A DNA stretch of 29,068 bases, taken from assembly GCA_947176115.1 (NCBI GenBank), contig CAMWPK010000001.1, positions 1 to 29,068 on the forward strand, given 5' to 3'. Made by a program: the position numbers and the translations under genes. The notes beneath the pieces are model-generated. The model searched no databases. It was not told where the DNA came from and worked only from the letters and a program-made list of their open reading frames with translations. How positions within the stretch are numbered: position 1 is the first letter of the stretch; each line of letters opens with the position of its first letter. Of the stretch, positions 215 to 22,996 are shown piece by piece. Source of the DNA: an uncultured Clostridia bacterium. GTDB taxonomy: Bacteria; Bacillota; Clostridia; Christensenellales; UBA3700.

Positions 215-1570
215 TTATCTCTTTTGAATCATATTTTTTATGTCTTTAACTTGGTTGTTTATCAAGTTATCTTCTTTGATAAGGTCTTCTATCTTATCTC
301 TTGCGTACATAATAGTAGTATGGTCCTTTCCTCCAAAATAACTTCCTATAGAGGCTAGAGGTACTCCCATCATATCATAAATAAGATAAATAGCTATCTG
401 TCTTGCCATAACTATTTGCTTAAGTTTTTTCTTGCCTATTACGTCTTGCTTTTTGACGTTGTAGTAAGAGCAAGTAGCGTCTACAATGGTATCCATTGAC
501 AATATGTGAGTAGTGACGTCAATATCGTCTTTCAGAGCTTCTTTGATTATGTCGATACTGTTTGGTTCTTTACCAAGCAATTGACAGTAGAAAATTACCT
601 TTTGAAGAGCTCCTTCGAGTTCTCTTATATTGCTGTCTATCTTTTCCGCTATAAAATATACCACTTCTATAGGAAGATTTACGTTCTTATAAAAAGCCTT
701 CTTTTGAAGTATGGCAATTCTTGTTTCTAAGTCTGGAGTAGATATATCCACCGTAAGACCGCTTGCAAATCTTGACTGTAATCTTTCTTCTAAGAAAGTA
801 AGTTCCTTTGGATGACGGTCAGAGGAGAGAACTATTTGTTTTTTGAATTGATACAAGTCGTTGAAGGTGTGGAAAAGCGCCTCTTGAGTTCCCGTTTTGC
901 CAGCCAAGAATTGTACGTCGTCTATCATAAGTATATCGACGTTGCGATACTTTTCTCTAAATCTTCTATTTTGTTCGTTGTCTTTATTATTTTTAATACT
1001 GTCAATATAGTCGTTGACAAACTGTTCCGTAGTGCAGTAAATTATCTTGGCTTTTTTATTCTTTTTCAAGATTTCATTACCGATAGCGTTCATAATATGC
1101 GTTTTGCCAAGACCAACTCCTCCGTAAATAAAAAGAGGATTGTGCAAAGTACCGGGTTGTTCTGCTATAGCTTTTGCAGCGGCGTAAACTACTTGGTTGC
1201 TTTGACCGACGACGAATTTGTCAAATACAAAGTCTGAATTAAAAAAACTCTTGCTATCGATATTATCATTATTGACTTCTTCTTTGGACTCTTGAATATG
1301 ACTTTCATAGACTGATACTTCGTCGGGTGTGATAATTACAAAATCGGTTATGTAAGTATAATTGAGTTTTTTTATCTCTTCTAGAATAATATCTCTATAA
1401 TTGTTGTATATAGTATTTTTGGTAGATTTAAGAGGAGATACAATAATAAGTTTGTTATAAGCTACTGTCAGAGGCTGTAGCGAATTAAACCACATATCGT
1501 AGCTTACAGTGGATATTTTATTGGATATTCCTAACAATAATTCATTCCAAATTTTCTTACAATCTTCCAT
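215..1570 (-). CDS. dnaA: Chromosomal replication initiator DnaA
   Basis: Walker A GGVGLGKTH, Walker B LMIDDVQF, RLQSRF, RELEGAL and the domain IV motif GGKDHTTIMYA are present. Confidence 0.99.
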   Translation of the reverse strand: MEDCKKIWNELLLGISNKISTVSYDMWFNSLQPLTVAYNKLIIVSPLKSTKNTIYNNYRDIILEEIKKLNYTYITDFVIITPDEVSVYESHIQESKEEVNNDNIDSKSFFNSDFVFDKFVVGQSNQVVYAAAKAIAEQPGTLHNPLFIYGGVGLGKTHIMNAIGNEILKKNKKAKIIYCTTEQFVNDYIDSIKNNKDNEQNRRFREKYRNVDILMIDDVQFLAGKTGTQEALFHTFNDLYQFKKQIVLSSDRHPKELTFLEERLQSRFASGLTVDISTPDLETRIAILQKKAFYKNVNLPIEVVYFIAEKIDSNIRELEGALQKVIFYCQLLGKEPNSIDIIKEALKDDIDVTTHILSMDTIVDATCSYYNVKKQDVIGKKKLKQIVMARQIAIYLIYDMMGVPLASIGSYFGGKDHTTIMYARDKIEDLIKEDNLINNQVKDIKNMIQKR

Positions 1571-1576
1571 ACGACT

Positions 1577-1605
1577 ATTATAATATAAAAAGCAAAATAT
1601 TTCAA
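1577..1605 (-). promoter_or_regulatory. sigmaA promoter of dnaA, probably leaderless
   Basis: Minus strand reads TTGAAA-17 nt-TATAAT-6 nt-ATG, with no Shine-Dalgarno. Confidence 0.7.
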
Positions 1606-1613
1606 TAAAAATG

Positions 1614-1642
1614 TTGAGAAAATATCTAAATTATTGTAAAAT
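1614..1642 (+). promoter_or_regulatory. sigmaA promoter of recF, probably leaderless
   Basis: TTGAGA (1614-1619)-17 nt-TAAAAT (1637-1642)-6 nt-ATG (1649), with no Shine-Dalgarno. Confidence 0.65.
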
Positions 1643-1648
1643 ATATCT

Positions 1649-2728
1649 ATGTATATTGAGAGCGTTCAACTTAAGAATTTTCGCAGTTATGAGATTAAAG
1701 AAGTGACTTTCAAAGAAGGTCTTAATATTATAGTAGGACAAAACGCAAGCGGTAAGACTAATCTTTTGGAGAGTATTTATTGCTCTGGTATAGGTAAATC
1801 TCCGCGTACTAACAACTATAAGGAAATGATTAAGTGGGGCAACGATATTGCCTATATAAAGGTAGTTCTAAGAAAAAACAAGACACTAAATACCATTGAA
1901 TTTTCAATAGACAGTCAAAATAAAAAGAGAATAGCCGTAGACGGCATACCGCTTGTAAAGTTGGGAGAAATAATAGGTATACTTAATATAGTTTTCTTTT
2001 CGCCAGACGAAATGAAACTTATTAAGGAAAGCCCGCAGGAGAGAAGAAGATTTGCAGATATAAGTCTTTCTCAACAAAATAAAAAGTATTTTTATTCGCT
2101 ATCCAAATACAATAACATACTTACTCAACGTAACAAACTTCTAAAAGAACACCGCGACGTAAAGGCCTTGCCGGAAATGTTGTACGGATGGGACGTTCAG
2201 CTTGCCGAGCACGGCGCGTATATTATTCAAAAGCGCTATGAATTTATTGACAAAATTAAAGGCTTTGCCAAGAATATGCACAATGAATTGACGAGTAATC
2301 TCGAAGATTTAGAACTTGAGTACGAAAGTAAGGTAGAATACGGCGAAATTAAAGCCATGCAAGAGGCTTTTTTTGATAGATTAAGAAAAGACTTTGACAA
2401 GGACTTAAATCTTCTTTATACGTCATTTGGCGCGCACAGAGATGATATATCAATAAAAATAAACGGCATAGACGTACGCAAATTCGGATCTCAAGGTCAG
2501 CAGAGAAGCGTGGCATTGTCGCTTAAACTTGCAGAGATATATCTCTTTGAGAGCGAAGTGGGAGAAAAACCCGTGCTACTTCTCGACGACGTGCTCTCGG
2601 AACTCGACCCCGAGCGTCGTAGAAAACTTATGGAATTATCCAGCGGACTTCAAACTCTAATCACTTGTACCGATTTTGATATGGATATAGCGCATAATAG
2701 AATATTGATAGAAAAGGAAAAGAAATAA
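1649..2728 (+). CDS. recF: DNA replication/repair protein RecF
   Basis: NFRSY, P-loop GQNASGKTN, FSPDEM, GAHRDD, SQGQQRS and LLLDDVLSELD motifs are present. Confidence 0.98.
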   Translation: MYIESVQLKNFRSYEIKEVTFKEGLNIIVGQNASGKTNLLESIYCSGIGKSPRTNNYKEMIKWGNDIAYIKVVLRKNKTLNTIEFSIDSQNKKRIAVDGIPLVKLGEIIGILNIVFFSPDEMKLIKESPQERRRFADISLSQQNKKYFYSLSKYNNILTQRNKLLKEHRDVKALPEMLYGWDVQLAEHGAYIIQKRYEFIDKIKGFAKNMHNELTSNLEDLELEYESKVEYGEIKAMQEAFFDRLRKDFDKDLNLLYTSFGAHRDDISIKINGIDVRKFGSQGQQRSVALSLKLAEIYLFESEVGEKPVLLLDDVLSELDPERRRKLMELSSGLQTLITCTDFDMDIAHNRILIEKEKK

Positions 2729-3279
2729 TGAAGCATATAGGCACGCAAACGATAGAAACTAATAGATTGATATTGAGAAGATTCCAAGATAATGACGCGC
2801 AAAGTATGTATAATAATTGGGTTTCTAGCGACGATGTTACGAAGTATCTTACTTGGCAAAGTTATAAGAGCGTAGACGAGGCGAAAGAGAGAATAAATTT
2901 TTTGAAAGAAAATTATTTCAATGATAACTTTTACGATTGGGCAATCGTATTAAAAGAAATAGGCGAACCTATAGGCAGTATAGGAGTAGTAGATATAAAA
3001 GAAAATATCAACACCGTACATATTGGTTACTGCATAGGCAAAAAGTGGTGGCGTCAAGGTATTACTTCAGAGGCTTTAAGCGCCGTAATAGACTTTTTGT
3101 TTGACAAAGTAGAAGTAGATAGAATAGAGAGTAGACATAACATTCTCAATGTTAATTCCGGCAAAGTGATGCAAAAGTGCGGAATGAAATACGAAGGCAC
3201 TATGAGAAAGGCGGATAGAGATAATCAAGGTATTTGCGATACCGCTTATTATGCAATATTAAAGAGCGATAGAAGATAG
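2728..3279 (+). CDS. GNAT N-acetyltransferase, RimJ/RimL-like
   Basis: IETNRLILR, IGYCIGKKWWRQGITSEA and N..SGKVMQKCGMKYEG motifs are present. The start overlaps the recF stop (TAATG). Confidence 0.9.
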   Translation: MKHIGTQTIETNRLILRRFQDNDAQSMYNNWVSSDDVTKYLTWQSYKSVDEAKERINFLKENYFNDNFYDWAIVLKEIGEPIGSIGVVDIKENINTVHIGYCIGKKWWRQGITSEALSAVIDFLFDKVEVDRIESRHNILNVNSGKVMQKCGMKYEGTMRKADRDNQGICDTAYYAILKSDRR

Positions 3280-3283
3280 TATT

Positions 3284-3344
3284 TGTCATTTAGACTTGAG
3301 CGTAGCGGATAGGTTTAGATTTCTCGACTACGCTCGAAATGACA
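3284..3344. repeat. TGTC-tagged palindromic REP-like repeat, as an inverted pair with a degenerate left arm
   Basis: Right arm is AGATTTCTCGACTACGCTCGAAATGACA (3317-3344) and left arm is TGTCATTT..GAGCGTAG. It sits between convergent genes. Confidence 0.8.
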
Positions 3345-3354
3345 TATTATTATA

Positions 3355-3993
3355 TTATTTGAACTCTAACGTATTATTGGGATATTCATTTACAAATCTG
3401 CTCACAACGTCTATAATAAGTCCCCATTCATAATTATCGTAAGTCTTTTGTGTCTTTATTTTTTGTAAGTCAAAATTGAGAAATACAAACTTTATATTCT
3501 CGCTATAATTACTCCATAAAAAATCATTGAGTAAATCTGCGTTATAATGGCAATTTTCTATATTTTCAAATTCAACGCTGTTTTTCCCGTCAAGTTTATT
3601 ATATATATCGTTATAGAACCCTTTGAAAGTATAGTGACCGTATGAGGCGTAATTTGTTTTATCAATGACAATTTTATTGACGAATTCGCCTACGCAATTT
3701 TTGAAAGTCAAGGTGTTATTTGAGCTAATCAAAACCAATCCGTTTATAGCGCTGAATATTTCTTTCCATTTAACGTCGTCATAACTTTTGCCTTCTGTAA
3801 TTTTGCTTAAATCAAAGCCTATAACGACAAATTGAAAACCTATAGCTCTGTTTTGCCATAAAAATTCACGAAGATTATCTAAGTTATACTCAAGATTAGC
3901 AATATTAAATTTATTCATTAATTTATCATAAAAACCCTTATAAGTAGAGTTTCCATATGTAGCATAATCATTTTTATCAATAATTATTTCCAT
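3355..3993 (-). CDS. Tandem double barstar-like immunity protein
   Basis: Two similar halves are present: IIIDK..TYKGFY..YNLDNLREFLW..NTLTFK and IVIDK..TFKGFY..YNADLLNDFLW..NTLEFK. The motif resembles the barstar NLDALWD motif. Its SD (AAGGAG) overlaps the upstream RNase stop. Confidence 0.8.
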   Translation of the reverse strand: MEIIIDKNDYATYGNSTYKGFYDKLMNKFNIANLEYNLDNLREFLWQNRAIGFQFVVIGFDLSKITEGKSYDDVKWKEIFSAINGLVLISSNNTLTFKNCVGEFVNKIVIDKTNYASYGHYTFKGFYNDIYNKLDGKNSVEFENIENCHYNADLLNDFLWSNYSENIKFVFLNFDLQKIKTQKTYDNYEWGLIIDVVSRFVNEYPNNTLEFK

Positions 3994-4006
3994 TATTATA
4001 TTCTCC

Positions 4007-4570
4007 TTATTTCACTTGATAAAAAGTAGTTTCGCCATGGTCGGGCGAAAAGAACATTAGACCGTCATTTGAGTAAAACAACCTTTTGCTATTTCTTGCG
4101 CCTGATATATAATCTATATCGCATTCATACCAGATTCGTCCGTCTTGTAGCGGAAGAATAAATCTACTGTTATAATAGATATCTCCGCCAATCATTTTTC
4201 CAGGAGCTTTGCCAGCTAGGGTATTTTTTCTATAACTCCAACCATATATTTCGTTTGCTTGTTTTTTGGTTATATAGTAGTCAGGCAATTTATTATATAA
4301 AGTTAACCAAACATCTGGTGAGTCAAGACCTTTTTGTGATATAGTACCCACTGGCTTTACCTCAATATCTTTGTAAAAGCAGTCACAATTTGGATGAGCA
4401 GGTAGCGTAGGTTCGGTCTTTCTTAGAAATATTCTATATTTCCTAGAGTTGCAATCCCAACACGGGATTTTACAATTTCCTTGATGTTTATACTGTATAA
4501 ATTCTGACTTGTTCTCTTTTTGTTTTTTATTGGACAAGAAAAAACCAAGCACGTTTTTGAACGCACTCAT
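4007..4570 (-). CDS. Barnase-family ribonuclease toxin with an N-terminal MuF-like CxxC..HPNCxC domain
   Basis: The C-terminal ~110 aa align by eye with barnase (KLPDYYITK, GW, APGK.IGGDI, GR.WYECDIDY.SG.RNSKR..YS.DGL, DH), including the equivalents of catalytic K27, E73, R83, R87 and H102. The start is moved to ATG 4570, behind the SD AAGGAGGT. Confidence 0.88.
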   Translation of the reverse strand: MSAFKNVLGFFLSNKKQKENKSEFIQYKHQGNCKIPCWDCNSRKYRIFLRKTEPTLPAHPNCDCFYKDIEVKPVGTISQKGLDSPDVWLTLYNKLPDYYITKKQANEIYGWSYRKNTLAGKAPGKMIGGDIYYNSRFILPLQDGRIWYECDIDYISGARNSKRLFYSNDGLMFFSPDHGETTFYQVK

Positions 4571-4621
4571 ATTATACACCTCCTTGTGTAAATTTACAAT
4601 AGTATTTAGGGGAGTGAGAAT

Positions 4622-4650
4622 ATTGTATCACGTAAATTTATCAAATTCAA
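4622..4650 (-). promoter_or_regulatory. sigmaA promoter of the RNase-barstar operon
   Basis: Minus strand reads TTGAAT-17 nt-TACAAT, with an extended TGn. Confidence 0.6.
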
Positions 4651-4689
4651 TTTTATGTGACAGATTTTTTAATTGTTTTCGCTAATAGT

Positions 4690-4728
4690 GAGATTTCTCC
4701 ATTTCGCTTCGCTACAGTCGAAATGACG
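4690..4728. repeat. CGTC-tagged REP-like repeat, long variant
   Basis: GAGATTTCTCCATTTCGCTTCGCTACAGTCGAAATGACG. Confidence 0.85.
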
Positions 4729-4896
4729 AAAGAACAACGGTCAATGTGACGAAATGATTACGGATAGGCTATTTAATGACTATGCTAATAATGAGAGGAG
4801 AGGGAGCATAGCAAGTTAGTATCAGTGTCTAAAGAAAGCGTCGATTAGGCTTATTATAATAAATACAAATTAAATTCTAAATTTTCCTTAAATTAC

Positions 4897-4925
4897 TTGA
4901 ATATAAACATATAATATGATATAAT
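4897..4925 (+). promoter_or_regulatory. sigmaA promoter of gyrBA
   Basis: TTGAAT (4897-4902)-17 nt-TATAAT (4920-4925) with an extended TG. Further TATAAT copies occur at 4910, 4934 and 4942. Confidence 0.65.
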
Positions 4926-4949
4926 AATTTTATTATAATATTATAATCT

Positions 4950-4983
4950 TGCGTATGCGTGTACGCACGTGTGTGCGCGTGCA
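4950..4983. other. 34-bp perfect alternating pyrimidine-purine tract (candidate Z-DNA)
   Basis: TGCGTATGCGTGTACGCACGTGTGTGCGCGTGCA; the alternation was checked base by base. The Z-DNA role is inference. Confidence 0.7.
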
Positions 4984-5106
4984 GGCGTGAAAGCAAGATG
5001 ATAAGGAGACGATGAACAAGTGACGCAAGCAAAATTGCGTAAGCGATTTTTGCGATAAGGAGGATAAGCGTTACGCTCGTAGCAGAGTTACGAGCGTGTT
5101 GGTTAG

Positions 5107-7098
<1,992 letters not shown>

Positions 7099-7110
7099 TA
7101 GGAGGCTGAA

Positions 7111-9636
7111 ATGGAAGAGAAGAAAGATAATATTTTTGAAATGCTGGATAAGACCAACGTCGTAGAAGTAGACGCTATCAACGAGATGAAGACCTCCTTT
7201 ATTGCATACGCAATGGCGGTCAACGTATCAAGAGCTATTCCTGACGTAAGGGACGGACTTAAGCCGGTTCACAGAAGAATTCTTTACGCAATGAACGAAT
7301 TGGGTCTTACGTCCGATAAGCCTTTCCGTAAATGCGCGCTTATCGTCGGCGACGTGCTTGGTAAATACCACCCGCACGGCGATTCTTCGGTATACGACGC
7401 ATTGGTAAGACTTGCGCAAGACTTTTCTATTAGATGTACGCTAGTTGACGGTCACGGTAACTTCGGTTCTGTTGACGGCGACCCTGCGGCCGCGTATCGT
7501 TATACGGAAGCAAGACTTAGCAAGATTGCCGACGAAATGATAAGAGATATAGATAAAAAGACGGTAGACTTTTATCCCAACTTCGACGATACGAGAGAAC
7601 AGCCTGTCGTACTGCCGTCGAGATACCCCAATTTGCTTGTCAACGGCTCGGACGGTATTGCCGTTGGTATGGCTACGTCCATTCCTCCGCACAACCTCGG
7701 AGAAGTTATAGACGGTACTATAGCGTTGCTTGAAAATCCGGAGCTTGACGTTGACGGAATTATGGAATATATTCCCGCTCCCGATTTCCCCACAGGCGCG
7801 TATATTATGGGCGGTGGCGGAATAAAGAAAGCCTATCGCACGGGTAGAGGTAACTGTATCATAAGAGCAAGAGCTGAAATAGAAGAAAACGACCGTTCCG
7901 GCAAGTCTAAGATTATTATTTCCGAGATTCCGTATCAGGTCAACAAGGCTAAACTCATAGAGAATATGGCTGACCTTGTAAAGCAAAAGAGAATAGAGGG
8001 TATTGCAGACATTCACGAGCTCTCCGACAAAGAGGGTATGAGAATAGTCGTAGACGTCAAGAAAGACGCCAATCCGCAAGTCGTGCTCAATATGCTCTAC
8101 AAGCACACTCAAATGCAGATCTCTTTCTCTATGATAATGCTTGCGCTTGTAGACGGTACGCCAAAGGTACTCAATATCAAGCAGATACTTGAAGAATATA
8201 TCAAGCACCAAAAGTCAGTTGTTGTCAGAAGAACGCAGTACGATCTAGACAAGGCTTTGGAGAGAGAACATATTTTGCTCGGACTTGTCAAGGCTTTGAC
8301 CAATATAGACGAAGTCATTGAAACAATTAAGAAATCCAAAGACAGACAGTCGGCTATTGAAAATCTTATGAACGGCTTTGAACTAAGCGATAAGCAAGCC
8401 ATTGCAATTCTTGAAATGAGATTGCAAAGACTTACCGCTTTGGAAGTAGAGAAGATTCAGGAAGAACTTGCCGAACTTGAGAAGACGATTGCAGATTTGA
8501 GAGATATACTCGCTAAACCGCAAAGAGTAGTTGAGATTATAAAGACGGAACTTTTGGAAATCAAGAGCAGATACAACGACAAGCGCCGTTCGGAAATCAC
8601 CTACGATTATTCCGATATTGACATCGAAGATTTGATAGAGGTAGAGGACGTAATTCTTTCCATTACTCACAACGGTTATATCAAACGTATGCCCGTAGAC
8701 GAGTACAAGGCTCAACGCCGTGGAGGCGTGGGCATATCTGCGCACAAGACCAAGGAAGAGGACTTTGTAGAGAACGTAATCACCACGTCTACCCACGACA
8801 ATATCCTTTTCTTCTCCAACAAGGGTAAGGTATACCGCGCTAAGGGCTATCAAATACCTGAGGCGAGCAGAACTTCAAAGGGAAGAGCTATCGTCAACTT
8901 GCTCAATCTTGAGCCGGGAGAAGTTATCAATGCTTACGTGCCTGTACCTAAGGACAGCCAAGGCTTCTTGATGCTTGCGACAAAGCAAGGTCTTATCAAG
9001 AAGACGACACTTGACGAATACGTGCGTATCAACAACAACGGCAAGAAAGCCATCACCTTTGCAAACGAGGAAGACGAACTTATCGGCGTACAACTCACTA
9101 GCGGTCAAGACGAAATTATTATGGCGTCAAGCGGTGGCAAGTGTATTAGATTCAGCGAAGAGGACATCAGACCTACCGGCAGAACGAGTATGGGCGTCAA
9201 GTCAATCAAGCTCGACAAGGGCGAAGTAGTAGTGGATATGACCAAGGTCAAAGAGGACTGCGAAGTACTCACCATCACTGAGAACGGCTACGGCAAGCGT
9301 ACGGATATCAGCGAATACAGACTGCAAGGCAGAGCCGGTAGCGGTATCAAAGTCGGCGTACTCAACGACAAGACGGGTAACGTCGTCAACCTCAAACTCG
9401 TTCATCCGACAGAGGACGACGTAATGATTATCTCTGACAACGGTATTATCATTAGAATTAAAGCCGACGAAATCTCTAAGATAGGCAGAAATACTCAAGG
9501 CGTCAAAGTCATGAGAATGAAAGATAGCAATTCTAAGGTAGTAGCGTTCACTATCGTACCTCACCAAGAGGACGAGGAAACGGCAGACACGCAAAGCGTG
9601 GATACGGCATCGCAAAGCGAGATCTCCGGCAAGTAG
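7111..9636 (+). CDS. gyrA: DNA gyrase subunit A
   Basis: [29 protein letters not shown] and the GyrA-box QRRGGVG are present, followed by C-terminal pinwheel repeats. Confidence 0.99.
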
Positions 9637-9687
9637 TCGAGAATAACAACACGACTGACGGAGAGTAAAATAGCGAATAGCAATAAT

Positions 9688-9716
9688 AAATAGCGTATCG
9701 AAAGGTACGCTATTTT
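9688..9716 (+). terminator. Intrinsic terminator after gyrA
   Basis: AAATAGCGTATC-GAAA-GGTACGCTATTTT. Confidence 0.75.
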
Positions 9717-9790
9717 CTAAATTATAAAATTCGTGTCATAAAGAGTTTATACGGGTATTGACACTATATCGTACAATAAAAGTAAAAAGA

Positions 9791-9818
9791 AAAGTTTCGC
9801 TGTGGCGGGACTTTTTTT
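9791..9818 (+). terminator. Second terminator-like hairpin directly before the toxin SD
   Basis: AAAGTTTCGC-TGTG-GCGGGACTTT followed by a T run; the stem includes G-U pairs. Confidence 0.55.
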
Positions 9819-9832
9819 ATGGAGGAGAAAGT

Positions 9833-10423
9833 GTGAGAGAATTAGAAAACGTCAGAAATAGCATATTGCAGATATTCGACAGTGCTAGTTGGATACAATT
9901 TATCCATGAAGGATTATTACCGGCGTATACAAGCCAAGAAAAAGCAAAGAACGTAATCAAAGGGAATTTAAGTAGTCATTGCGCTATCTGTAGAAACATT
10001 AACAGGTGTTGTTTCCCTAAAAACAATATGCCTAAATATCCGTTACATCCAAATTGCCATTGCTATTTGTTAGATATTCCAAGACCGCAAGTGACGGCAG
10101 AATGTCCGGAAGAAAAATTTGAAAGATATATTTTTTCGCCTGAATATGTTGGTAATGGAAAAATACAGTTGTATACAAAGTGGGGGTATGGTAAAATTAA
10201 TACGAAATATCTTGTGAATGAACTTACAAGACAAGCTGATAAAAAATATTCAAACGGTGATTTTGAACTCGGTCTGTTAAACGAATACGGTCAGCGTATT
10301 TCTATTGTGACAGAGTTAAATCGATTAGACGGGAAAGGAATAGTAAAATTTTTGACGGGTTGGATGGTATATCCCGATGGCAAAATACAATTGACAACGC
10401 CTTATGGAGGAGAAGTAAAATGA
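9833..10423 (+). CDS. Putative polymorphic toxin: MuF-like CxxC..HPNCxC domain fused to a DUF6883-like domain
   Basis: CAIC..YPLHPNCHC is followed by PEEKFERYIF..GK..WGY..NEYGQR..TGWMV..LTTPY, recognised by eye as DUF6883-like. The start is moved to GTG 9833, behind the SD GGAGGA (9821-9826). Confidence 0.72.
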   Translation: MRELENVRNSILQIFDSASWIQFIHEGLLPAYTSQEKAKNVIKGNLSSHCAICRNINRCCFPKNNMPKYPLHPNCHCYLLDIPRPQVTAECPEEKFERYIFSPEYVGNGKIQLYTKWGYGKINTKYLVNELTRQADKKYSNGDFELGLLNEYGQRISIVTELNRLDGKGIVKFLTGWMVYPDGKIQLTTPYGGEVK

Positions 10424-10797
10424 AAGAATACGATTACGTTGAAGTAACAGTAGAGAAAGAAAAGTACGCCAAACAAGGAGTACACAAAGGAATGAGGGGC
10501 ACAATATTAGACCCTCGCAATATAGACGGTTGTTGGTTGGTATTTTTTGAAGACGACCCGTTTGGAACAGCAATAAAGGAAGAAGACTTGAAGTTAATTT
10601 ATGAAAACGTGAAAGAGCCAATTGAAATACTAGTAAGGGTAATAGTAGAAAAAGAAGAGTATGCTAAGCAAGGCGTACACAAGGGGATGCAAGGAATGGT
10701 GTATGATATTACAGCAGAGAATAATTGCTTACAAGTGTTTTTCACAGAAAACAAAAGTGTACTAATAGATATATTCGATTTGAGAGAAGTAAAATGA
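10420..10797 (+). CDS. DUF4926-like putative immunity protein with two tandem domains
   Basis: MKEYDYVEV..YAKQGVHKGMRGTILD..WLVFF, followed by a second YAKQGVHKGM unit. There is an ATGA overlap with the toxin stop. Confidence 0.72.
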   Translation: MKEYDYVEVTVEKEKYAKQGVHKGMRGTILDPRNIDGCWLVFFEDDPFGTAIKEEDLKLIYENVKEPIEILVRVIVEKEEYAKQGVHKGMQGMVYDITAENNCLQVFFTENKSVLIDIFDLREVK

Positions 10798-11000
10798 AAG
10801 AATACGATTACGTGGAAGTTATAGTAGAAAAAGAAAAATACGCAAAGCAAGGCGTACATAAGGGAATGAAAGGCACGATACTTGACCCAAGAAATATAGA
10901 CGGTATGTGGTTAGTAGTTTTTGAAAATCCAATCACACTCGCAGATGAACTTTTCGTGCCAATAAAAGAAGAAGACTTGAAATTTATTTTTGAAGGATAA
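10794..11000 (+). CDS. DUF4926-like putative immunity protein, single domain
   Basis: A near-copy of the first domain of the preceding gene, again with an ATGA overlap. Confidence 0.72.
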   Translation: MKEYDYVEVIVEKEKYAKQGVHKGMKGTILDPRNIDGMWLVVFENPITLADELFVPIKEEDLKFIFEG

Positions 11001-11021
11001 ACCTTTCTACTGAGTAGTAAA

Positions 11022-11117
11022 ATGAAAGAATACGATTACGTGGAAGTTATAGTAGGAAAAGAAAAATACGCAAAGCAAGGCGTACACAAAGGCATGCGAG
11101 GGGTAATATATGAGTAA
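11022..11117 (+). pseudogene. Truncated DUF4926-like copy (31 aa)
   Basis: Reads MKEYDYVEVIVGKEKYAKQGVHKGMRGVIYE*. It is not in the ORF track and stops 8 bp before a REP-like repeat. Confidence 0.75.
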
Positions 11118-11125
11118 ATGCTGTT

Positions 11126-11154
11126 GAGATTTCTCCACTACGGTCGAAATGACA
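11126..11154. repeat. TGTC-tagged REP-like repeat, short variant
   Basis: GAGATTTCTCCACTACGGTCGAAATGACA. Confidence 0.85.
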
Positions 11155-11690: not shown

Positions 11691-11729
11691 GAGATTTCTC
11701 CATTCCGCTACGCTACAGTCGAAATGACA
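11691..11729. repeat. TGTC-tagged REP-like repeat, long variant
   Basis: GAGATTTCTCCATTCCGCTACGCTACAGTCGAAATGACA, abutting the ROK gene stop codon. Confidence 0.85.
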
Positions 11730-12794: not shown

Positions 12795-12823
12795 GAGATT
12801 TCTCGACTACGCTCGAAATGACA
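12795..12823. repeat. TGTC-tagged REP-like repeat, short variant
   Basis: GAGATTTCTCGACTACGCTCGAAATGACA; 12796-12828 is identical to 3317-3349 over 33 nt. Confidence 0.88.
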
Positions 12824-22544: not shown

Positions 22545-22584
22545 GAGATTTCTCCATTTCGCTAACGCTACAGTCGAAATGACG
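22545..22584. repeat. CGTC-tagged REP-like repeat, long variant
   Basis: GAGATTTCTCCATTTCGCTAACGCTACAGTCGAAATGACG. Confidence 0.85.
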
Positions 22585-22724: not shown

Positions 22725-22779
22725 GAATGACAAGCAAAACAGCGCTATGACTTGACTTCCCACCGAAATCCGTCTTTGA

Positions 22780-22945
22780 TATTGCAGGCAGGTCTCCTGA
22801 CTTACGGCTTCATACCTTGCGCTCTCTTCCCGATTTTTCAGTGACAACGAGCGTTCGTAGCCGATACAGTAGCGGGGGCTGTCGGAGATTTTCACACCGT
22901 TCCCTTTTTAATGTATGGCGATTGCCAAAACAACCTTACAATATT
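22780..22945 (-). ncRNA. Cobalamin riboswitch
   Basis: Minus strand reads AGGTT..TAAAAAGGGAACGGTGTGAAAATCTCCGACAGCCCCCGCTACTGT..CACTG..GGGAAG..AGTCAGGAGACCTGCC, the conserved B12-box pattern. The boundaries are approximate. Confidence 0.93.
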
Positions 22946-22996
22946 ATTTATTTTTGCTTATTATATATTAGTTTAGAGAAGTTTGTCAATGAATTT

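Follow-up and report, generated by a model that had tools for sequence, protein, structure and literature searches.

Two chromosomal toxin-immunity cassettes in an uncultured Clostridia bacterium probably share a constant module derived from the end of the phage MuF domain

Introduction

Barnase-type toxins paired with barstar-type immunity proteins (Tox-Barnase with Imm-Barstar) have been listed among the toxins linked to MuF, within a "MuF phage-capsid-like system" (Zhang 2012, PMC3482391). DUF6883 has been described as BECR-Tox3, an RNase with the BECR fold (named after barnase, EndoU, the colicins E5 and D, and RelE) that has a conserved downstream DUF4926 gene and N-terminal fusions to Phage_Mu_F (2026 preprint, bioRxiv 10.64898/2026.08.28.747851). 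The great majority of muf genes (96%) are located in prophages or prophage remnants (Jamet 2017, PMC5576092), and loading of the toxin into capsids has been proposed for MuF toxins (PMC3482391, PMC5576092, PMC6316719). Here, two toxin-immunity cassettes, toxA-immA and toxB-immB, are analysed in a stretch of 29,068 nucleotides from an uncultured Clostridia bacterium (UBA3700), comprising positions 1-29,068 of contig CAMWPK010000001.1 in assembly GCA_947176115.1 and referred to below as the window. The two are probably chromosomal cassettes of polymorphic-toxin type and members of a stand-alone family that has a MuF-derived module as its constant handle.

MuF toxins are, to our knowledge, the least understood among the polymorphic toxin families, and we know of no demonstration of their delivery. 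As the MuF-barnase-barstar and MuF-DUF6883-DUF4926 combinations are already published, only the truncated chromosomal form is new. In a literature search, no description was found of a carrier cut down to its zinc end or of its stable existence outside prophages, nor of a module that occurs with cell-wall enzymes as well as RNases, nor of a slot polymorphism around gyrBA.

The shared Cys/His module

The proteins toxA and toxB have in common a stretch of 40 residues that aligns without gaps and with 14/40 identical positions (BLASTP E 4e-6 for this pair). When 70 N-terminal domains are aligned, 35 from each of the two architectures (barnase and DUF6883), the residues C21, C24, H43, C46 and C48 (C-x2-C and H-x2-C-x-C) are invariant in 70/70, and the His at the end of the FIQYxH/WIQFIH strand is retained in at least 90%. 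The corresponding ligand candidates are H29, C37, C40, H59, C62 and C64 in toxA, and H25, C50, C53, H72, C75 and C77 in toxB. Proteins of the toxB type carry a helical insert of about 20 residues between this strand and CxxC. Because of this ligand pattern the module is predicted to bind zinc, and it is most likely a zinc knuckle made up of a beta strand ending in His, CxxC, and P-x-H-P-N-C-x-C. In the AlphaFold2 (AF2) models of both toxins, the toxin domain is preceded by a small strand-knuckle-strand module, which itself follows an N-terminal helix of low confidence. No signal peptide or hydrophobic segment is seen in toxA or toxB by hydropathy. A profile of the module found nothing meaningful among PDB sequences, and none of the five cassette proteins is matched by PADLOC (5027 defence models) or NCBIfam.

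MuF is represented in Pfam by PF04233, a domain of 112 positions with a gathering score of 29.6 bits. This family is matched weakly by 18/70 members of the module family (best E 0.0015), and is the top family by far. With hhalign, the module alignment matches six PF04233-bearing proteins, four over the cut-off and two just under it, with a probability of 98% (E 3e-13). A search of 1.84 billion representatives with the module profile retrieves proteins that are themselves over the PF04233 cut-off (P0350, P0352 and P0379), and the match of the profile on PF04233 spans positions ~50-111. Residues 49-82 of toxB match PHROG 1657, head morphogenesis (E 0.0035), and in BFVD the structures that match toxB best belong to minor capsid proteins of Siphoviridae, 473 and 497 amino acids (aa) long, with both domains aligned. 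As the PF04233 matches of the family, the profile retrieval, hhalign, and the PHROG and BFVD matches all agree, the module can be identified as the terminal part of the MuF domain. MuF proteins have about 300 aa or more; their helical body (PF04233 ~1-50) and the MuF region upstream of it are absent from both toxins, in which CxxC is preceded by 36 (toxA) and 49 (toxB) residues. Thus, as judged from sequence comparison, the module and the C-terminal Cys/His end of MuF are homologous, while by the defining features of MuF proteins toxA and toxB do not belong among them.

A genome-wide scan with PF04233 did not pick up toxA or toxB. The only match that it gave in the same genome, on contig C52, was discarded as an antisense artefact, being located inside a 1053-aa open reading frame (ORF) and containing two stops; the same artefact occurs in a related genome (G003). 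Weak matches of the module on two further contigs of the genome (C53 and C22) contain stops, and were also dropped.

Several of these points had been proposed in an earlier note on this DNA. The N-terminal motif that it described as common to toxA and toxB is confirmed, with the quoted peptides exact, the alignment ungapped and the ligands invariant in the 70 domains. Its assignment of the motif to the Cys/His region of MuF is borne out by hhalign (98%, E 3e-13), profile retrieval and the PHROG match. The two absences that it reported also stand, that of the helical MuF body from the residue counts before CxxC, and that of a signal peptide from hydropathy.

The barnase cassette

toxA (4007-4570, minus strand) encodes a protein of 187 aa with an N-terminal helix, the MuF-end module at ~20-70 and a barnase RNase domain at ~82-187. 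Its start is the ATG at 4570, with the ribosome-binding site AAGGAGGT upstream, and a promoter-like TTGAAT-17-TGnTACAAT is found 5' of the gene at 4650-4622. The toxA upstream region (4571-4889, minus strand) holds this promoter-like site together with one copy (4691-4727) of a dispersed repeat described below, and synteny with relatives resumes at its end. The C-terminal part of toxA matches Pfam PF00545 with E 8e-5 and 23.5 bits (cut-off 24 bits), and PF00545 is present in many toxA homologues. Compared with barnase and binase from the PDB by phmmer, toxA gives E 2e-25, and the barnase catalytic Glu, both Arg and the His are kept in the aligned segments WYECD/WREAD, GARNSKR/G(F/A)RN(S/A)DR and PDHG/TDHY. 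The AF2 model of toxA is confident, with a predicted local distance difference test (pLDDT) score of 89.5 and a predicted template modelling (pTM) score of 0.84, and its matches in AFDB are ribonucleases with template modelling (TM) scores up to 0.82. Judged by these alignments, the RNase domain of toxA is a true barnase with its catalytic residues intact.

Downstream is immA (3355-3993, minus strand), separated from toxA by 13 nt that hold a Shine-Dalgarno sequence. It encodes 212 aa in two repeats of ~106 aa that are 42% identical to each other (E 2e-26), and is the putative toxA immunity protein, barstar-like by position. A 112-aa single-unit homologue of immA adjoins, on the 3' side, a distant toxA homologue in another genome (E 8e-7). 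The whole immA protein and its halves have no match in Pfam, barstar PF01337 included, and no match to immA was found among PDB sequences with either a single query or a 4-sequence profile. A search for immA homologues returned one protein. Leads from immA to Barstar in the Atlas are weak (feature score 0.82, structure TM 0.39/0.46).

The DUF6883 cassette

toxB (9833-10423, plus strand) encodes 196 aa, with an N-terminal helix, the MuF-end module at ~18-83 and a DUF6883/BECR RNase domain at ~88-196. It starts with GTG, preceded by GGAGGAG. Between gyrA and toxB are a terminator-like hairpin of gyrA (9688-9715) and, just 3' of it, the toxB leader (9720-9832, plus strand), a conserved stretch of ~110 nt that moves together with the toxB module and is found 5' of toxB in both of the slots the gene occupies among relatives. 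Homology to the toxB modules of relatives begins at window position 9718-9724 in four of their loci (blastn; L018, L019, L020 and L021, labels that are used below wherever positions in relatives are given). toxB matches Pfam PF21814 (DUF6883) with E 5e-5 and 24.1 bits (cut-off 27 bits), and PF21814 is present in many toxB homologues. Its AF2 model (pLDDT 91.7, pTM 0.85) finds DUF6883 proteins in AFDB with Foldseek (TM by hit up to 0.68-0.89). Among solved structures, the C-terminal domain is matched best by the CdiA-CT chain 6cp9_A (TMt 0.64, probability 1.0, 18% identity). The C-terminal domain of toxB is, on these model comparisons, a DUF6883 domain with the BECR fold, and a putative RNase.

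The genes that follow toxB are built from a single unit that occurs four times: twice in immB1, once in immB2 and once in a remnant. immB1 (10420-10797, plus strand; 125 aa) is the putative toxB immunity protein and consists of two DUF4926-like (SH3/KOW-like) units, D1 and D2. immB2 (10794-11000, plus strand; 68 aa) is a single-unit paralogue of immB1, and the remnant (11023-11118, plus strand; 31 aa) is a truncated fourth unit that is followed by a copy of the dispersed repeat at 11127-11153. toxB and immB1 overlap by ATGA at 10420, as do immB1 and immB2 at 10794. In other genomes, single-unit genes of 67-68 aa adjoin toxB homologues on the 3' side. The immB proteins have no match in Pfam at E<=10, PF16277 (DUF4926) included, and their nearest Atlas clusters are DUF4926 (score 0.88, 171 shared features). 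The position of immB 3' of a DUF6883 gene fits the published association of DUF6883 with DUF4926.

Binding of toxB to immB1 is supported by structure prediction. Residues 84-196 of toxB co-folded with immB1 score 0.78, against 0.00 for the best of three controls; the mark used was reached by 58/80 solved complexes and 2/110 mismatched pairs, counts that are only rough because an alignment of our own was used. The predicted interface includes the invariant or near-invariant toxin positions K95, Y99, K110, R155, G176 and T189.

Family size, cargo domains and distribution

At E<=0.001, there are 307 homologues of toxA and 115 of toxB, of the same ~190-aa length and from Clostridia metagenome bins, and none of these carries a MuF annotation. 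With the module profile, 326 clusters (50% identity) are found at the same threshold, most of them 60-300 aa long, the module being located close to the N-terminus (~15-85). Among 66 C-terminal extensions of at least 60 aa, 47 are of the DUF6883 type and 4 of the barnase type, and the remaining 15 are spread over 14 small groups. In one of these small groups the module is followed by a Tlde1 L,D-transpeptidase-like domain (P0349), with a 182-aa gene downstream. Two further proteins combine an internal module with an M23 peptidase, one of them also with a peptidoglycan (PG)-binding domain. The module-bearing cell-wall enzymes have no N-terminal signal-like sequence, as judged by eye, which argues that the module serves the exit of its cargo from the cytoplasm rather than a function on RNA. 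Of 301 genomes sampled evenly from the class, 27 carry the module, and most of these copies lie in open frames of 130-230 aa.

A constant N-terminal module with swapped C-terminal domains is a criterion for polymorphic toxins, and in sequence the family has exactly this arrangement. A second criterion is a cognate downstream immunity gene accompanied by spare or orphan immunity units, which is also what the loci contain, with the immunity function putative. The hundreds of homologues, the 326 clusters and the invariant ligands agree with the proposal of the earlier note that this is a stand-alone family, which proves to be stable and widespread and not a set of decayed genes, and the note's idea of swappable toxin domains can be extended from DUF6883 and barnase to Tlde1, M23 and domains of no known type. 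Its description of the downstream genes as tightly coupled and internally duplicated is accurate (42% identity between the immA halves, four immB units, and ATGA overlaps or a 13-nt gap), and these genes do behave as immunity genes in the toxB-immB1 co-fold and in the synteny of the immA-type unit. The two toxin domains had been called unrelated; this applies to their sequences, which diverge after the motif into barnase and DUF6883, but not to their folds, as both are BECR-fold RNases (PMC3482391, bioRxiv 10.64898/2026.08.28.747851).

Genomic context and turnover

The window is filled with housekeeping genes near the replication region, and no phage genes are found among its ORFs. toxA-immA is preceded in the window by dnaA (215-1570, minus strand), recF (1649-2728, plus strand) and a GNAT acetyltransferase (2728-3279, plus strand); gyrB (5137-7098) lies between toxA-immA and gyrA, and gyrA (7111-9636) lies 5' of the toxB module. 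On the 3' side of the immB array are a 114-aa ORF (orf114), a ROK kinase, DUF6320, an acyltransferase, ftsH, fba and others.

The toxB module is found in 5/22 species of the genus besides the source genome. In 4/5 of these relatives it is located between gyrA and orf114-ROK, as in the window. In the remaining case (G018), it lies between GNAT and gyrB, which is the slot of toxA-immA in the window, and in another genome (G007) this GNAT-gyrB slot is empty and measures 327 bp. In other genera, modules are found in other housekeeping blocks, for example 3' of hrcA-grpE-dnaK-dnaJ...rpsU, or in the truA-ruvAB gap in a diderm. The flanking of gyrBA, to which the earlier note drew attention, is therefore specific to this genus, and represents a lineage-specific choice of slot that is not part of the mechanism. 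No phage genes occur within 8-10 kb of the homologue loci examined in other genera. A tblastn search of 50,697 phage records gave no relatives of toxA or toxB, and none were found in IMG/VR by pattern and tblastn, a method that needs conserved peptide words and may miss distant relatives. The housekeeping, non-prophage setting that had been noted for the window is thus shared by the homologues, in the contexts examined and by the lack of relatives in phage collections.

Signs of turnover are seen in relatives, and include immunity arrays of 2-3 genes, a solo immunity gene beside gyrA, decayed toxins and toxin-immunity chimeras. One decayed toxB relative (L021:9337-9840, minus strand; P0151) has lost CxC and the first part of the toxin domain through an internal deletion, and three immunity genes come after it. 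Another (L019:7991-8503, plus strand) is shortened at the N-terminus and has no immunity gene. The chimeras P0233 and P0236 each consist of a toxin C-terminus fused to an immunity unit. Polymorphic toxin islands usually show such turnover.

Other features of the region were also seen. In four relatives, a gene for a lipoprotein-like protein of ~464 aa, with a signal-like N-terminus and Cys, is present in the gyrA-side slot beside the toxB module (L017:8657-10051, minus strand; L020:2941-4332, plus strand; L021:6784-8178, minus strand; L019:8611-10005, plus strand); it is absent from the window. The ~100 nt directly 5' of gyrB (5034-5135) are 72-77% identical to the orf114-ROK intergenic stretch of relatives (L019:10553-10653, L021:6196-6296, L020:5895-6015), and may represent a common leader or regulatory element. 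The genes dnaA and recF are divergent, 78 nt apart and without dnaN between them (215-2728), an arrangement that is unusual for the dnaA-dnaN-recF-gyrB region. A cobalamin riboswitch (RF00174) is located at 22770-22954 on the minus strand (96 bits, E 5e-23).

The dispersed intergenic repeat resembles repetitive extragenic palindromic (REP) sequences and has the form AGATTTCTC-N(6-24)-TCGAAATGAC, with versions of 27 nt and 37 nt. Six copies are present in the window, all on the plus strand (3317-3343, 4691-4727, 11127-11153, 11692-11728, 12796-12822 and 22546-22583). As three copies lie at module edges, the repeat was considered as a module-specific cassette end. This was rejected, as there are 74 copies in the 1.38-Mb genome, against 0 for a reversed control pattern, and the repeat is absent from the module edges of relatives.

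A phage-like head gene cluster

The genome assembly (1.38 Mb in 174 contigs, 91% complete) at first appeared to have no portal or terminase, with PF05133, PF04860, PF03354 and PF03237 unmatched. This absence was misleading, as tblastn with the cluster of a relative found portal and capsid genes on contig C67. The cluster to which these genes belong is seen in a relative (G022, contig C8; L035:8022-19076) and comprises a small terminase subunit-like gene (TerS-like), a large terminase subunit (TerL; Terminase_6N and 6C), a P22-like portal, an acidic protein of 215 aa, a putative capsid protein of 390 aa and a further five genes, DUF7934 among them. In the source genome, the portal-to-DUF7934 part of the cluster is present on C67 (about 296-7663, with the portal at 5807-7663 on the minus strand), and the contig ends where TerL would be expected. 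The head-cluster proteins of the two genomes are 35-83% identical, with the portal at 80.6%, similar to core genes, and the 390-aa protein at 83%. Exactly one Terminase_6N gene is present in each of the five module-bearing relatives tested, and a single TerL of this type is found in 37/41 relatives across the order (21/22 species of the genus and 17/19 genera). The cluster looks vertically inherited. It could be a domesticated particle or a system like a gene transfer agent (GTA), and is a candidate vehicle for the toxins. The MuF motif is found in no protein of the head cluster, and there are no PF04233 proteins in the source genome or in the module-bearing relatives scanned. As nearly every relative has a head cluster, its presence neither supports nor refutes the idea of a vehicle. 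The cassettes had been described as phage-free, which is correct for the locus and the whole window but not for the genome, given the P22-like portal and capsid cluster on C67.

Proposed mechanism and alternatives

On the favoured reading, that of polymorphic-toxin cassettes with a constant MuF-derived handle, toxA (barnase) and toxB (a colicin-like BECR RNase, DUF6883) would be cytoplasmic RNases without a signal peptide. The producer would be protected by a co-translated downstream protein, immA with its two barstar-position units in one cassette, and immB with its DUF4926-like units and spare copies in the other. The module would descend from the phage MuF domain (SPP1 gp7 / Mu F), of which it keeps the last third without the helical body, and the accessory cassettes would move among a few intergenic slots in conserved housekeeping blocks. 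We infer that both toxins are toxic, that they are neutralised in the producer by their partners, and that the module is the constant handle for their delivery. The handle might load the toxin into capsids by way of portal or DNA, as in MuF, and the capsids could come either from infecting phages or from the resident head cluster. Such loading is the reading of the handle's job that we prefer, although it is less likely than not. It is distinctly unlikely that the module is a minimal capsid-loading tag by which host toxins ride in particles of the resident head cluster, as a GTA-like system with "MuF" toxin cassettes scattered over the chromosome.

Some of the results weigh against the favoured reading. 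toxA and toxB have no match to PF04233 even at E<=1, the hhalign match covers 37 columns only (the CxxC..HPNCxC core), and no evidence here ties the module to a portal. A barstar signal in immA is not detectable by sequence in Pfam or the PDB. The head-cluster terminase occurs in 37/41 relatives, against 8/41 for the module, which gives no informative correlation. The high pTM of the full-length toxin models (0.84-0.85) suggests that the module packs on the toxin domain, so that a structural or regulatory role would also fit.

This last point is the basis of an alternative in which the module is a structural or regulatory appendage inherited from a MuF-toxin ancestor, such as a folding nucleus, an autoinhibitory lid or a nucleic-acid clamp, and the toxins act after lysis of the producer or as addiction modules. 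It would agree with the single confident rigid body that AF2 gives for each full-length toxin, with the lack of a linked secretion system at the loci, and with the description of SPP1 gp7 as a DNA-binding protein, which is known here from the title of Stiege 2003 as cited in PMC6316719. However, the same module precedes the unrelated catalytic folds of barnase, colicin-like BECR, Tlde1 and M23, which is hard to reconcile with a fold-specific role, and a nucleic-acid clamp would make no sense for peptidoglycan enzymes; this alternative has a slim chance of being correct. The occurrence of Tlde1, M23 and PG_binding, with their targets outside the cytoplasm, also speaks against an intracellular toxin-antitoxin (TA) or abortive infection (Abi) system, in which the module would be a sensor or decoy for phage portal or head proteins, and would free the RNase to kill the infected cell with no export. 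Such a system would account for the missing signal peptides and hydrophobic segments, for the tight coupling of toxin and partner in translation, for the RNase nature of both toxins, which is common to many TA and Abi systems, and for a patchy accessory distribution like that of defence islands; the ancestor of the module moreover binds the portal in SPP1 (PMC6316719). It is nevertheless unlikely, as none of the 5027 PADLOC defence models is matched, no defence genes are near the loci examined, and the toxin-first order with spare and orphan immunity arrays is typical of polymorphic toxin loci and not of TA pairs. Finally, the cassettes could be leftovers of MuF toxins from decaying prophages, truncated at the N-terminus by accident and heading for loss, and some copies in relatives are indeed decayed, namely P0151 in L021 without CxC, the shortened toxB in L019 without an immunity gene, and the chimeras P0233 and P0236. 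Decay as a general explanation is very improbable, in view of the hundreds of clusters that keep the ~190-aa architecture, the invariant ligands and intact catalytic residues, of the intact ribosome-binding sites and coupling, and of the lack both of phage genes beside the loci examined and of relatives in phage collections.

The cassettes provide a natural minimal carrier of ~55 residues that is separate from any prophage, which makes the question of MuF delivery directly testable through portal or DNA binding and through entry of cargo into capsids. Among gut Clostridia, members of the family are common (27/301 genomes of the class), and with its RNases and cell-wall enzymes it may shape competition among strains or the interplay of phage and host. 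A further possible use of the module is as a small tag for loading cargo into phage particles. Were the toxins instead to act inside the cell, the module would be a new type of sensor for abortive infection.

Comparison with known systems

The cassettes resemble MuF polymorphic toxins in that a MuF Cys/His end precedes a variable C-terminal toxin, and small immunity genes follow. They differ in that the window proteins keep only the last ~40-55 residues of the 112 positions of PF04233, and are not part of a head-morphogenesis module. The second known system, barnase-barstar of Bacillus amyloliquefaciens (PF00545/PF01337), is similar in that the toxA RNase is a close homologue of barnase and a gene in the position of the inhibitor lies directly 3'. 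Barnase is a Sec-secreted enzyme, whereas toxA lacks a signal peptide, with the MuF-end module in its place, and immA is a tandem duplicate without detectable similarity to barstar. For toxB, the closest solved counterpart is the CdiA-CT/CdiI pair of Klebsiella pneumoniae 342 (6cp9, a BECR tRNase), which is its best solved match, and in which the toxin is bound and neutralised by its cognate immunity protein. CdiA-CT, however, depends for its delivery on a type V two-partner secretion filament in Gram-negatives, and has a different immunity protein of its own.

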